DNA from: a virus
Lineage: Duplodnaviria > Heunggongvirae > Uroviricota > Caudoviricetes
Reading direction: 5' to 3' (one strand)
DNA length: 41,341 nucleotides
IMG/VR virus record: IMGVR_UViG_2718217863_000002
Below, piece after piece: positions 4,901 through 11,106 of the stretch. The notes below the pieces were generated by a model. The model worked only from the letters and a program-made list of their open reading frames with translations, was not told where the DNA came from and searched no databases. Position 1 is the stretch's first letter. Each line of letters begins with the position of its first letter. A program made the position numbers and the translations under genes.

Positions 4901-4935
4901 CCCCTTGAGTGTGCCTGCTCAAGGGGATTTTTTAT
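4901..4935 (+). terminator. rho-independent terminator (plus strand)
   Basis: CCCCTTGAG-tgtgcctg-CTCAAGGGG then ATTTTTTAT; overlaps the last codons of the invertase gene on the other strand. Confidence 0.5.
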
Positions 4936-5488
4936 CGCCGCATTGTACCGGCAAATTTTTGTAAATAGTCTTCACATCTACGCCTATCACATCTGCGATC
5001 TGTTGCCGAGTAGCGCCGTTCTCCAGCATTCTGCGGCACCGCTCCACCACTTCTTCAGTCATTACCCGGCGGCGGCCGCCGACTCTCCCCTGCTCCCTCG
5101 CTGCGGCTAACCCGGCTCGGGTACGCTCCACTATCAGCTCGCGCTCCATTTCTGCCAGGGCGCTCATGACGTGGAAGAAGAATCGCCCTGCTGGCGTCGA
5201 AGTGTCGATCGAGTCGGTAAGGCTGCGGAAATTCACCCCACGCGCCTGCAACTCTGACACGAGCGTAATCAGATCGCGCACGCTGCGGCCCAGCCGATCC
5301 AGTTTCCAGACCACCAGCACATCACCCGGGCGGAGCCGTCGCAGCGCTCGCTTCAAACCTGGCCGCCGGGCATTCTTCCCGCTGGCCATATCCTCGAAAA
5401 CCAGCTCACATTCTGCGCGGATCAGCGCGTTTTTCTGTAAATCGAGGTTTTGATCCCCGGTTGATACCCTCGCATAGCCAATCAGCAC
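4919..5488 (-). CDS. serine DNA invertase (Hin/Gin/Cin/Pin family)
   Basis: GYARVSTGDQ with catalytic Ser, VWKLDRLGRS, GRFFFHVMSALAEMERELIVERT, C-terminal HTH; 189 aa; GTG start. Confidence 0.9.
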   Translation of the reverse strand: MLIGYARVSTGDQNLDLQKNALIRAECELVFEDMASGKNARRPGLKRALRRLRPGDVLVVWKLDRLGRSVRDLITLVSELQARGVNFRSLTDSIDTSTPAGRFFFHVMSALAEMERELIVERTRAGLAAAREQGRVGGRRRVMTEEVVERCRRMLENGATRQQIADVIGVDVKTIYKNLPVQCGDKKSP

Positions 5489-5531
5489 GATCTAACTCCT
5501 TGAAATAGCTGATTGTAAAAAGCCGCGGCCA

Positions 5532-5557
5532 TTCGCTCAAACCCTCGTTTGGGCGAA
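5532..5557. other. candidate 26-bp invertase crossover site (left)
   Basis: TTCGCTCAAACC-CT-CGTTTGGGCGAA: 12-bp imperfect inverted halves (10/12) around a 2-bp core; sequence identity with the fibre-A side begins exactly at its first base. Confidence 0.45.
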
Positions 5558-5579
5558 GCCTCTTTTTGGAGCAAAAAAC

Positions 5580-8565: not shown

Positions 8566-8590
8566 TCCCCCCGGAGGCACGCCGGGGGAA
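8566..8590. terminator. bidirectional terminator between the convergent fibre genes
   Basis: TCCCCCCGG-aggcacg-CCGGGGGAA hairpin flanked by A/T runs. Confidence 0.5.
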
Positions 8591-8718
8591 AAGCGATGAA
8601 TGACATTATTGCTGTGTGCGTCTTTGCGCGTTGATATACTCCTGGATAATTCAAAACATTTCCAGATATTTCTTATTACAGCATTTTAGAAACACTACTA
8701 CGCGATAAGCACTGTTAA

Positions 8719-11058
8719 CTAGCCCACCAGTTTCTGTAGGGCAGTAAGCCGATCGGTTATCAGTGAGGAAATACGCACAGGCCCCGCGTCCGCATTGAGG
8801 TGGATGCGGGACGGATTTGTATCCCCCTCGGTTAATAAAAAACTAGTGCTATTGAATTTTGTCCAGCCACAGTCAGCGTTAAGGTCTATTAGGGGGAATC
8901 CATATCGCAACGCCACGGCGCGTATGGCCGCTGCATAGTCAGAAACCCGCCCATAGCCATTTGTTTCACCGTCAACCCATGCCGCTGAACGTGGAGAATC
9001 ATAGTCCCCATTGAACGGCGTGGCCCACAGGATAGGTTTTGTTGGGGCCCGCGCCCGCAGTTTCTGAGCGATGATGTTCAGCGCGCCGTAAACGGTTGTA
9101 TTCACTGAGTCGGTGATACTTCCAATCGGAATATTTTGCGCCCAGTCGTTTGTTGCCCACGGACCGCAAATCCACGCCGCCGCCGATGTATCCAGAGCAT
9201 TGATTCGCACATCGTCGCACATGCTGATTTGCGTTGAGGAGCTATCCGGTTTGGCTATTTTCGAACCACCGACCCCGTGATTCAGAAAAGTGCAGCCCAG
9301 TTCTGCCGCGACAAGAGGTTGCCATTTGTTATAAGCAACGTTGCTGTCACCCATCACATCGATGACTTTTCCAGACCACGGACTGACCGTGCTACCACCG
9401 GGAACGACTACATATTTTTTGGCAATAATGGGGACGGCTATACGGGTGGTGATCCCGATTTTGGCGGTGCCGGAAGGAGGTGTTAGCTCGTAATCGGTGT
9501 AGTCCACCGATTCTGTAGTACCGTTCCCTTCGGTGCCGATAACCGTCCCGGCACTGTTCATATACACCGCGAGCGAAACTCCACTGCCGTTAACCCTCGC
9601 TGTGACTTTCCAGCGGTCTCCTGCTGTGTAATTAAAAATTGCACAGTCAAATGCAGCATTTGCCACCACACTGCCATCAGCACGGTTTATATATGCTCCT
9701 GAGGTAATCGTGACGTCGTGTTTAATAAAATCATAAACAAGAGAGTCCTCTATTGTTTGTACCCTGACATCCAGAGAATCGATCGATGCCAGTACTTTGG
9801 CCGTCTCAACGACAGCAAGTTTTTTAACAGCAATTTCCGCAGAATTACGACCCGTTATACCGATCTGTGTTGTCCCGGCAGGAACGTTAAGACGATAATT
9901 AGTATACTGCTGCGGGGTTGCCGTTCCCCGCCCTTCAACACCCAATACCATCCCGGCGCTGTTCATGTACACGGCCAGAGCAGTCGCCGATCCTGTCACA
10001 AGGGCTGTCACCAGCCAGCCATCCCCGTCGGAATGCGGAATGATTGCGCAGTTCAGCGCAGAGTTATCAGTGATGGCCCCTGTAGTTGGGTTGATAAATT
10101 TCCCGACTTGCCAGGCAGCTGCATAAGCATAACCAACAGAGATAGCTCCCTGGAGCGCATCGACGCGTGATGTTAACCCCGAAATACCGGATGATATGAC
10201 GGCTGACAGATAAGTTTTATCCGGCGTGGCGCGAACAAAATCAGGCTGAATAGCCCCCAACGCAGCAGCATAAGCACCGACCTTAAATATCCCTGCCGTA
10301 GTATTTTCAACCCGGATCCTGACGTAGGATGCGCCGGATGGAATGACATCTGTGATAACCGGCGTATTTATACCTGCGGCCAGAGCAAGCTGTGATTTAG
10401 ACGAAATAACAGCGCCAGCGGTGGACATCCAGAAAATATGGAACATAGCACCGGCATCCTGGAACCACGCCAGCACGGAAAAGGTTAACTTATCACCAAC
10501 CCTTACAGGCAGGCGGGCAAGGTCATAATATTTATCTGCAGACCATACGCCGGAATACTGTGCCACTGGAGTCGGTAACGAAATATTGGCATCAGTAGTG
10601 CTGAAGGTGATCACTGCTCCGCGATACCAGTCCCACGCACCGAATTTAGGATCATTTGCTGAATATTCATTCAGAGCATCAAACAGAATGTTCGCCCCGC
10701 GTAGCGAAGAATAAGATGGCATTTTCCGCCCGGTAGGCTGCAGCGTACCGGCGTTATTGATCACTTCTACAGCTAACGCGTTGTCATCCGGGCTACGGTA
10801 ATACGTGGTCGACCCCACCGGAATATTCGCGATATCCGCCTGCGCCGCTGCCAGCGTCTGGTATTGCTTACTGAGCGGGATCAGGTTCTGCCTGACCTCA
10901 TCGTTTTTCGCCATCATCTGGCGCCAGGTATCGAGTGGTTCACCGCCGCGGTCGTCAACCGTTCCGGCCGGACCGTTAACCAGCTCGTCAGCGCGCTTAA
11001 CGTTGTCCATGAATATTTCCGGCGTCGTCGTGCCCAGTGGCGGGTTAAGTTCGGCCAT
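8719..11058 (-). CDS. tail fibre / receptor-binding protein, variant A (in expression position after J)
   Basis: 779 aa; shared N-terminus MAELNPPLGTTTPEIF; C-terminal region with GDSN, GGS and ND motifs suggesting an SGNH-type hydrolase. Confidence 0.75.
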   Translation of the reverse strand: MAELNPPLGTTTPEIFMDNVKRADELVNGPAGTVDDRGGEPLDTWRQMMAKNDEVRQNLIPLSKQYQTLAAAQADIANIPVGSTTYYRSPDDNALAVEVINNAGTLQPTGRKMPSYSSLRGANILFDALNEYSANDPKFGAWDWYRGAVITFSTTDANISLPTPVAQYSGVWSADKYYDLARLPVRVGDKLTFSVLAWFQDAGAMFHIFWMSTAGAVISSKSQLALAAGINTPVITDVIPSGASYVRIRVENTTAGIFKVGAYAAALGAIQPDFVRATPDKTYLSAVISSGISGLTSRVDALQGAISVGYAYAAAWQVGKFINPTTGAITDNSALNCAIIPHSDGDGWLVTALVTGSATALAVYMNSAGMVLGVEGRGTATPQQYTNYRLNVPAGTTQIGITGRNSAEIAVKKLAVVETAKVLASIDSLDVRVQTIEDSLVYDFIKHDVTITSGAYINRADGSVVANAAFDCAIFNYTAGDRWKVTARVNGSGVSLAVYMNSAGTVIGTEGNGTTESVDYTDYELTPPSGTAKIGITTRIAVPIIAKKYVVVPGGSTVSPWSGKVIDVMGDSNVAYNKWQPLVAAELGCTFLNHGVGGSKIAKPDSSSTQISMCDDVRINALDTSAAAWICGPWATNDWAQNIPIGSITDSVNTTVYGALNIIAQKLRARAPTKPILWATPFNGDYDSPRSAAWVDGETNGYGRVSDYAAAIRAVALRYGFPLIDLNADCGWTKFNSTSFLLTEGDTNPSRIHLNADAGPVRISSLITDRLTALQKLVG

Positions 11059-11080
11059 GTTTTTTGCTCCAAAAAGAGGC

Positions 11081-11106
11081 TTCGCCCAAACGAGGGTTTG
11101 AGCGAA
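11081..11106. other. candidate 26-bp invertase crossover site (right), exact inverted copy of 5532-5557
   Basis: TTCGCCCAAACGAGGGTTTGAGCGAA is the exact reverse complement of 5532-5557; lies 22 nt upstream of the fibre A start, about 30 nt after the J stop. Confidence 0.45.

Follow-up and report, generated by a model that had tools for sequence, protein, structure and literature searches.

In this study, we describe a switch in a 41,341-nucleotide stretch of prophage DNA (the window) that is very probably, at a rough probability of 0.87, a working site-specific inversion system of the Gin/Hin/Cin/Pin kind exchanging whole fibre cassettes. The prophage is an Escherichia coli prophage of Klebsiella type, and the switch it carries is widespread and apparently an undescribed variant of the Mu host-range switch. 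In the mechanism we propose, the invertase encoded at 4919-5488 would bind both of two 26-bp sites, exchange strands at their central CT and flip the 5575-bp segment that they delimit. Since the sites lie between the stop codon of the tail tip gene J and the ribosome-binding site (RBS) of the fibre gene, the segment carries two self-contained receptor-binding cassettes, each equipped with an RBS, a start codon and an N-terminal anchor domain (about 115 aa) of its own. The late tail transcript would read the cassette that faces J, which at present is fibre A and after a flip would be fibre B together with its accessory ORF; the other cassette, wrongly oriented and with no recognisable promoter, is presumed silent. 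The segment and its surroundings are composed of the following features.

5532-11106, no strand: invertible segment, 5575 bp including the sites; both orientations occur in public assemblies
5532-5557, plus strand: left 26-bp site (outer half 5532-5543, core CT 5544-5545, inner half 5546-5557), invariant in all related loci
11081-11106, minus strand: right 26-bp site (inner half 11081-11092, core 11093-11094, outer half 11095-11106)
5580-7739, plus strand: fibre B, 719 aa, the invertase-proximal fibre; PHROG 4201 tail fiber protein, E 2e-114
7747-8463, plus strand: accessory ORF of cassette B, 238 aa, 3' of fibre B
8566-8590, minus strand: intrinsic-terminator-like hairpin with T-run, downstream of fibre A and between the cassettes
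8719-11058, minus strand: fibre A, 779 aa, the J-proximal fibre in the window, with a C-terminal SGNH/GDSL esterase domain
11135-14203, minus strand: J/TipJ tail tip gene (NCBIfam attach_TipJ_rel, E 6e-137; PHROG 469), last of the constant late genes, upstream of the switch

The two sites are exact reverse complements of each other, lie in inverted orientation and read TTCGCTCAAACC CT CGTTTGGGCGAA at both ends, with the 12-2-12 layout of gix, cix and pix. The half-sites on either side of the 2-bp core CT, TTCGCTCAAACC and TTCGCCCAAACG, are the same at 10 of 12 positions and have TTC.C..AAAC in common with the half-sites of gix, cix and pix in the Mu, P1 and K-12 records. An inverted pair of 26-bp sites with imperfect 12-bp halves and the same asymmetric core is the arrangement of the Din systems. 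When up to three mismatches were allowed, the 41-kb window contained these two sites only (0.00 expected from 100 shuffles). An earlier note, made from the sequence alone, had described identical inverted sites with a 2-bp core, and all of its coordinates proved correct; it had also reported that the ends are identical from the first base of the site onward, over about 67 bp, where we measured a perfect 68 nt (5532-5599). Beyond this stretch the homology of the ends persists, at 85% over 393 nt (5532-5924 versus 10714-11106), and within it lies another near-perfect block, about 60 nt long, at roughly 5700-5760. The right site sits 28 nt past the stop codon of J and 22 nt upstream of the fibre ATG.

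Enclosed by the sites are two complete, convergent fibre genes, each with its own RBS. Consistent with the earlier description of two opposed genes with homologous N-termini (about 115 aa) and unrelated C-termini, the fibres have their N-terminal ~118 aa in common, with 77% identity in a 138-aa BLASTP alignment including that region, and show no similarity detectable by BLASTP after it. The placement of fibre A behind J also held, as J directly precedes it on the minus strand. Fibre A matches Pfam Lipase_GDSL_2 across residues 571-757 (E 2.4e-9), as well as GDSL-like proteins in the PDB and fibre families in PHROG, and fibre B has a weak SASA/SGNH-type esterase match under the Pfam cut-off. 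The accessory ORF had zero matches in Pfam, PHROG and NCBIfam, yielded an unusable AlphaFold model (pLDDT 34) and was unrelated, by profile comparison, to the accessory ORFs of three other cassettes. Seventeen homologues were found, all those with a source name coming from Klebsiella, and the ORF travels together with fibre B in Ec-U1 and SX45, in both of which fibre B lies behind J. A role for it as a chaperone was considered and set aside, as its position would be the sole basis for one. No canonical plus-direction terminator was found after this ORF, and tRNA and Rfam scans of the whole window returned nothing.

An improbable but not negligible alternative is that both fibres are expressed in either orientation, giving two receptor-binding proteins, and that a flip has little or no effect on host range. 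Each cassette is, after all, a complete gene with its own RBS, and our promoter scan was a crude consensus test whose regional hit count equalled the shuffle expectation, its promoter calls being predictions only. Against this, the invertase-proximal cassette faces a constant flank in which the only predicted promoter is that of the invertase and is divergent, and the two cassettes converge on a terminator. The near-identical N-terminal anchors further suggest competition for one docking site, and neutral flipping is hard to reconcile with a site that is perfectly conserved, along with an invertase, throughout the family. We infer instead that expression is confined to the J-proximal cassette and that a flip would change the host range; the silence of the other cassette is presumed solely from the absence of a consensus promoter.

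Both orientations of the segment occur naturally. Look-ups by exact protein identified this prophage in both states: CP173466, CP021175 and others have it in the window orientation, and CP035350, CP181607, CATKIQ01, JAUFOB02 and DAEGOL01 have it flipped. In the latter, J is followed by fibre B and the accessory ORF, and fibre A lies beside the invertase, which is the alternative arrangement that the earlier note had predicted. The 100-nt outer flanks are unaltered in these genomes, and the sequence inside is cassette-specific at 400/400 nt (399/400 in one assembly). With flanks unaltered and cassettes intact, the crossover is confined to the 68-nt identical stretch that starts with the site, and the comparison of public assemblies documents actual inversion at the sites, as known for Din systems. 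Flipped and unflipped copies differ by 0-2 SNPs, and one such pair (L007 and L008) by none besides orientation; this is too few for independent inversion events to be counted from SNPs, and the flipped assemblies may be descended from a single event. The full region was in the window orientation in 10 of 10 RefSeq complete E. coli genomes that have it, so switching may be slow.

The site is conserved far beyond this prophage. We found the exact 26-mer in at least 120 IMG/VR stretches, and wherever at least 140 nt of outside flank were available, either J (47-100% identity) or the invertase was located outside the site, with a fibre N-terminus on the inner side in nearly all cases. In KPP5665-2, WP2-S18, Ec-U1 and SX45 the 26-mer is invariant and the directly following nucleotides differ. 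The 103 complete fibres found fall into 57 clusters (types), ten of which were seen on both the J and the invertase side, and in 23 locus pairs the cassette interior is >90% identical with unrelated outside flanks. One IMG/VR locus (L141) has J on both sides, an implausible arrangement. Among species-representative genomes, only three (two Klebsiella, one Enterobacter) contain the exact site, which indicates a narrow enterobacterial range and tells little more.

This conservation bears on a second alternative, namely that the flips arise from homologous, RecA-dependent recombination of the 5' ends of the two fibre genes, which are 85% identical over 393 bp, with the invertase being irrelevant or inactive. 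The window prophage does have a long inverted repeat, and its crossover can be placed no more closely than to the perfect block of 68 nt; no other identical stretch is as long, and homologous exchange could plausibly use it as a substrate. Nevertheless, we give this explanation little credence. In 10 of the 23 distinct two-site loci the perfect end repeat amounts to 26 nt only (26-27 nt in 13), and the ten cassette types that occur on both sides across loci include cassettes from such short-repeat loci. Homologous recombination would need no conserved outer half-sites, yet these are conserved in otherwise unrelated flanks, and none of the five flipped assemblies had its crossover in the ~60-nt block near 5700-5760.

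Inversion by a dedicated recombinase, the reading that we prefer, draws further on the invertase gene and its vicinity, which comprise four features.

4919-5488, minus strand: gene of a serine DNA invertase (189 aa), starting with GTG and oriented away from the segment (Pfam Resolvase, HTH_7; PHROG 125)
4900-4927, plus strand: strong terminator-like hairpin with T-run, facing the 3' end of the invertase gene
5399-5470, minus strand: enhancer-homologous stretch, invertase gene nt 19-90, aligned to the enhancer annotated in the P1 record (cin)
5512-5540, minus strand: predicted invertase promoter, sigma-70-like TTGAGC-17-TACAAT, from the consensus scan

The gene product matches Pfam Resolvase (E 1.6e-49) and HTH_7 as well as PHROG 125 'DNA invertase' (E 1.8e-85), and it aligns to the PDB structures of Gin (3uj3/4m6f, E about 1e-71) including the catalytic serine motif RVST; a weak match to the DNA-binding domain of Hin was also seen. 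It thereby combines the N-terminal catalytic domain with active-site serine and the C-terminal HTH of the recombinases of Din systems, and the earlier identification of a Hin/Gin-type invertase next to the segment is borne out. Its identity to Gin, Cin and PinE is 62-66%, as compared with 75-82% of those three among themselves, which on sequence grounds places it as an outgroup to them.

The enhancer of Din systems, which acts in cis and is located in the 5' part of the invertase gene, comprises two Fis sites with a spacing of 48 bp. A motif scan of the gene, prompted by the suggestion in the earlier note to look there for a Fis-binding enhancer, revealed a strict Fis-consensus 15-mer at nt 71-85 (window 5404-5418), where cin and gin have an enhancer site; the second Fis position, TATCAACCGGGGATC at nt 23-37, is G/C-rich in its centre and off consensus. 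Among 40 invertase genes of the family, an invariant run of 14 consecutive nt spans the consensus site, and synonymous variability over gene nt 19-90 is 0.109 versus 0.201 elsewhere (p = 0.0013). Inversion would presumably require Fis. The predicted invertase promoter has its -35 hexamer inside the outer half-site, where it is fixed, so that the promoter would be identical in both orientations, and the invertase may regulate its own expression. At the other end of the gene, the hairpin at 4900-4927 may insulate the invertase and the silent cassette from plus-strand transcription entering from outside.

The principle of an invertase-driven fibre switch is textbook knowledge, and it is only the architecture that is new. 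As in the G segment of Mu with Gin (also D108) and the C segment of P1 with Cin, a small serine invertase is located directly outside one end and reads away from it, the sites are inverted 26-bp sequences of 12-2-12 layout, two convergent fibre cassettes come with accessory genes, and the 5' end of the invertase gene holds an enhancer-homologous stretch. However, the annotated crossovers of Mu and P1 lie within gene S, between its constant and variable parts, and join an outside constant N-terminal part to alternative C-terminal parts, in agreement with the contrast that the earlier note had drawn, whereas the crossover here falls past the stop codon of J and 22 nt before the ATG, such that complete genes with their own anchors are swapped. 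Exon switches of the Mu/P1/e14 type have the site inside the fibre ORF; in the present segment, both fibre ORFs are complete. The virion also differs, being that of a lambda-like siphovirus with J and not of a myovirus, as do the invertase, by its outgroup position (62-66% versus 75-82%), and the distal Fis site, by its departure from consensus.

The P segment of e14 with PinE (also PinQ and PinR; E. coli K-12) resembles the present switch in its icd/iraM locus and in the order of fibre segment, invertase and prophage end. Alignment to known sites, which the earlier note had suggested, further identified pixL of e14, CTCTCGAAAACC TT GGTTTGGGAGAA, as the most similar, with 19 of 26 positions equal. 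In e14, crossover takes place inside stfP and stfE and results in chimeric ORFs, in contrast to the window, in which no ORF is split or fused. The Hin/H segment of Salmonella relies on a recombinase of the same family, with the same kind of site and enhancer logic. Hin inverts a promoter and so turns constant genes on and off, whereas in the present switch it is the genes that change position next to a constant promoter side: outside the segment lie J (upstream, same strand) and an invertase with its own predicted promoter, and the consensus scan predicted no outward promoter-like site at the segment ends. In the sap S-layer system of Campylobacter fetus, inversion likewise moves entire alternative genes for surface proteins, with conserved 5' regions, into expression position. 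That system reportedly depends on RecA and on long conserved 5' homology, and it is not known to be phage-borne or to use a Gin-type invertase or a 26-bp site. Two candidate precedents were discarded: HK225 has an orphan invertase and lacks a convergent fibre pair, and Citrobacter phage Chris1 has a classical Mu-type layout. Our literature search found whole-gene fibre inversion not to be described, save for a passing report in a preprint on K. pneumoniae ST14, in which a ~5-kb, five-ORF inversion beside a DNA invertase in 'phage #4' contains fibre genes and 'does not disrupt any ORF' (bioRxiv 10.64898/2025.12.17.694638). That report gives no sites, mechanism or interpretation as a switch (bioRxiv 10.64898/2025.12.17.694638); the inversion is very probably the same kind of element.

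The e14 prophage also provides the precedent for a switch that mainly serves the lysogen and not the virion, as its PinQ-driven inversion is reported to yield an adsorption-blocking protein (PMC12529663). The present prophage occupies the same e14/icd locus, and in several carriers it has been damaged by IS elements or introns inserted into J, the head module or the invertase. We regard such a role as very unlikely to be the main one here: inversion makes no chimeric ORF, the head, tail and packaging modules of the window are without an IS insertion like that of strain 5CRE51 (the only one with the ISKpn26 insertion), and KPP5665-2, a related siphovirus of the same architecture, is inducible and plaque-forming. 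That the flipped database orientation is an assembly artefact is barely credible, for although inverted repeats can mislead assemblers and the locus with J on both sides is implausible, the flip is present in several independent chromosome-scale assemblies of different strains that are each marked by IS or intron insertions of their own, and a perfect repeat of 68 nt is a short one for assembly from long reads or with large k.

A site-specific switch of whole fibre genes, as we favour it, would have practical implications. Receptor-binding proteins determine for which capsules and O-antigens the temperate phages of Klebsiella and E. coli are specific, and many of them are SGNH esterase fibres (PMC13123978). 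If a large prophage family encodes two complete receptor-binding proteins and displays just one of them at a time, host-range prediction from a prophage needs the orientation of its segment, the silent partner would confound the association of prophage receptor-binding proteins with K-loci, and lysates of a single lysogen may hold two host-range types. Further, a Gin-type invertase system would be able to exchange whole genes from an intergenic site, which makes the cassettes freely portable modules, and the switch could be used as a compact natural part when phages are engineered to alternate between receptors.

We also put forward, tentatively and with more doubt than conviction, that the invariant site and the self-contained cassettes constitute, beyond a switch with two states, a general platform for whole-gene exchange of receptor-binding proteins among Klebsiella-type temperate siphoviruses. 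Because the cassettes of each relative start with the same site, a resident invertase could act across phages and recombine the sites of co-resident or superinfecting relatives, and complete fibre genes would in this way move between phages with J only ~54% identical. Such a platform would explain the 57 or more cassette types, the homology that sets in at the first base of the site, the retention of the site by single-fibre phages and oddities like the locus that has J on both sides. The single-fibre relatives in question (L036, L038 and L071) are without an invertase and retain the exact 26-mer, so the palindrome may also have another role; together with a conserved T-run, it might serve as a hairpin in the RNA, or as an attenuator, in the interval from J to the fibre gene.

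Searches of public assemblies for proteins identical to fibre A and fibre B recovered the same prophage in two arrangements, which differ in the orientation of the 5575-bp segment 5532-11106. The features involved are the following.

4919-5488, minus strand: invertase
5532-5557: left 26-bp site, TTCGCTCAAACC CT CGTTTGGGCGAA
5580-7739, plus strand: fibre B (SASA-type hit, sub-threshold only)
7747-8463, plus strand: accessory ORF
8719-11058, minus strand: fibre A, with an SGNH/GDSL esterase domain at its end
11081-11106: right 26-bp site, of which the left site is the exact reverse complement
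11135-14203, minus strand: J/TipJ

The arrangement of the window (invertase / fibre B, accessory ORF, fibre A / J) is present in CP173466, CP021175 and about 18 similar places. Five assemblies (CP035350, CP181607, CATKIQ01, JAUFOB02 and DAEGOL01) carry the flipped order (J / fibre B, accessory ORF ... fibre A / invertase), in which fibre B and its accessory ORF lie behind J, as the earlier note had predicted for an inversion. In the flipped genomes the 100 nt outside each site are unchanged at the nucleotide level, each cassette retains 400 of 400 nt inside (in a single assembly, 399), and all 63 differences between the arms are preserved; between one flipped and one unflipped assembly there are 0 SNPs across the segment and both flanks. 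With flanks kept, cassettes intact and no SNPs, the exchange was therefore reciprocal, precise, recent and confined to a 68-nt block starting with the site. We consider this whole-gene fibre switch well supported, common in Klebsiella-type prophages and of practical relevance, though not surprising in concept.

These two sites are the only matches in the window with up to three mismatches, where none is expected in shuffled sequence. Identity between the segment ends starts at base 1 of the site. The first 68 nt, which extend past the RBS into the first codons, match perfectly, and similarity continues at 85% up to 393 nt; the immediate outside flanks bear no relation to each other. The exact inverted sites and a shared stretch of about 67 bp, both read from the sequence beforehand, are thus borne out. 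The same holds for the homologous fibre N-termini (put at about 115 aa) and unrelated C-termini: fibres A and B have some 118 aa in common (77% identity across a 138-aa BLASTP alignment including this region), and BLASTP detected no similarity beyond it.

Over its full length the invertase aligns with the sequences of the Gin crystal structures (E about 1e-71), and it contains the serine motif RVST. Its identity to Gin, Cin and PinE is 62-66%, against 75-82% among those three, and it therefore represents an outgroup subfamily. The proposed alignment to known sites used those found in the annotated database records of Mu, P1 and K-12.

gix: TTATCCAAAACC TC GGTTTACAGGAA
cixL: CAATCCTAAACC TT GGTTTAAGAGAA
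pixL: CTCTCGAAAACC TT GGTTTGGGAGAA

All three have the 12-2-12 layout and the half-site core TTC.C..AAAC in common with the window site, pixL being the nearest (19 of 26 positions equal). Mu, P1 and e14 recombine within a gene, joining a constant N-terminus to alternative C-termini, and in Hin the promoter is the moving part. By contrast, the site in the window is intergenic and whole genes, each bringing an anchor domain of its own, change places; the phage, moreover, is a siphovirus. The contrast drawn earlier with Mu and P1 agrees with their annotated crossovers.

The search for a Fis enhancer inside the invertase gene gave a divided answer. The P1 record annotates the enhancer at cin nt 19-90, and both gin and cin hold Fis-consensus 15-mers at nt 23-37 and 71-85, spaced by 48 bp. 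In the window gene, nt 71-85 (GCGCAGAATGTGAGC) conform to the strict consensus, and the 14 nt at 70-83 show no variation, not even at wobble positions, across 40 distinct genes of the family; in the motif scan nt 23-37 failed the consensus, having a G/C-rich centre. Synonymous variability is 0.109 in codons 7-30 and 0.201 elsewhere (one-sided Mann-Whitney p = 0.0013), and is lowest in windows beginning at codons 8-14. This pattern of constraint points to a likely cis element at the 5′ end of the gene.

At least 120 IMG/VR stretches contain the 26-mer without a mismatch. Among the matches listed, sites were classified where 140 nt or more of the outside flank was present: outside every one lies either the C-terminus of J (47-100% identical to window J) or an invertase of the window subfamily, and inside nearly all lies a fibre N-terminal domain. 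Within the same matches, segments range from 5.1 to 7.4 kb, and the 103 complete fibres starting after a site form 57 clusters by their C-terminal parts, 10 of which are present on the J side and the invertase side alike; 23 locus pairs combine a >90%-identical cassette interior with unrelated outside flanks. The perfect end repeat measures exactly 26 nt in 10 of 23 distinct two-site loci listed and 26-27 nt in 13, so it is the 26-bp site that is conserved as a unit, and the long repeat of the window is incidental. In prophages Ec-U1 and SX45 the cassette behind J is a fibre B cassette 96% identical to that of the window, combined with another partner; their homology to the window begins at base 5532. 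The accessory ORF belongs to a tiny family of 17 homologues, all those with a source name from Klebsiella. It shows no sequence relation to the accessory ORFs behind other fibre types, so such partners appear to be cassette-specific.

Variant sites among the listed matches differ at position 21 only (G to C or G to A; J-side sites of loci L075, L090, L133 and L135). In the standard site this is already a position at which the half-sites disagree, and the G-to-A variant makes the palindrome more perfect. Three loci (L036, L038 and L071) have J, an exact 26-bp site and one fibre (plus accessory ORF) but, over at least 8.8 kb, neither an invertase nor a second site, and in L065 the invertase is reduced to a 90-aa fragment. 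In these loci either the switch was lost recently or the palindrome serves a second function. The IMG/VR locus L141 (1442-7867) has two convergent fibres with J on both sides of the segment and no invertase, and stops 140 nt past the second site; an assembly-graph artefact from a mixed-orientation culture or recombination between two prophages are possible causes.

As judged from consensus scans, the late transcript covering J most likely continues through the site into the adjoining cassette, that of fibre A most likely stopping at a hairpin and T-run (8590-8566). The second cassette is convergent, and its upstream flank would hold only the divergent predicted invertase promoter (5540-5512, TTGAGC-17-TACAAT), whose -35 hexamer stays fixed during inversion because it lies inside the outer half-site. 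A strong predicted plus-strand terminator (4900-4927) may shield the invertase and the presumably silent cassette against outside transcription. A 74-nt stretch left of the invertase (4817-4890) is 74% complementary to the fibre A 3′ untranslated region (8600-8673), each copy being followed by a strong hairpin and T-run (4900-4927, plus; 8590-8566, minus); the left copy (4774-4930) is kept also in single-fibre relatives without invertase, such as L038. Copies and terminators resemble an 'end of fibre operon' module used a second time, or else an insulator. The site itself folds as a strong predicted 11-bp RNA hairpin directly upstream of the fibre RBS and, with the conserved pyrimidine/T-run that follows (GCCTCTTTTT, CGCCTTTTTT or CACCGTTTT in relatives), scores as intrinsic terminator-like (11050-11140, minus; 5532-5579, plus). 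The predicted fold of the 91-nt site region has an MFE of -19.5 kcal/mol (z = -1.9), and the modelled hairpin may attenuate or stabilise the J-to-fibre transcript besides its recombination role.

In the literature searched we found no description of a whole-gene fibre inversion switch from an intergenic site, and in a 2026 PLoS Biology study of Klebsiella prophage receptor-binding proteins the words inversion, inverted, recombinase and invertase are absent. A 2025 preprint (bioRxiv 10.64898/2025.12.17.694638) reports, for a K. pneumoniae prophage, a ~5-kb, five-ORF inversion that lies beside a DNA invertase and leaves every ORF undisrupted, and does not interpret it as a switch.

The window is a lambda-like prophage of Klebsiella type at the icd/iraM/ycgX locus of E. 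coli, the site occupied by e14 in K-12. Ten RefSeq complete E. coli genomes contain the 6.6-kb region of the switch at ~100% identity, in the window orientation in 10 of 10. Klebsiella siphovirus KPP5665-2, which is inducible, shares the architecture but carries other cassettes. Between invertase and chromosome lies a umuD/umuC-like error-prone polymerase pair (3935-4369 and 2668-3993, minus strand). This prophage, or a related one, occurs naturally in damaged form in JBIHGT01 (L011/L020), CP181607 (L009/L016), CATKIQ01 (L010/L018), 5CRE51 (L006) and SCU-308 (L002). The damage includes an invertase truncated by IS26 (129 aa; window orientation, presumably locked), J interrupted by a group II intron, IS26 with an aminoglycoside acetyltransferase gene inside J, an invertase pseudogene with the invertase-side site lost, and, in 5CRE51, a head module hit by ISKpn26.
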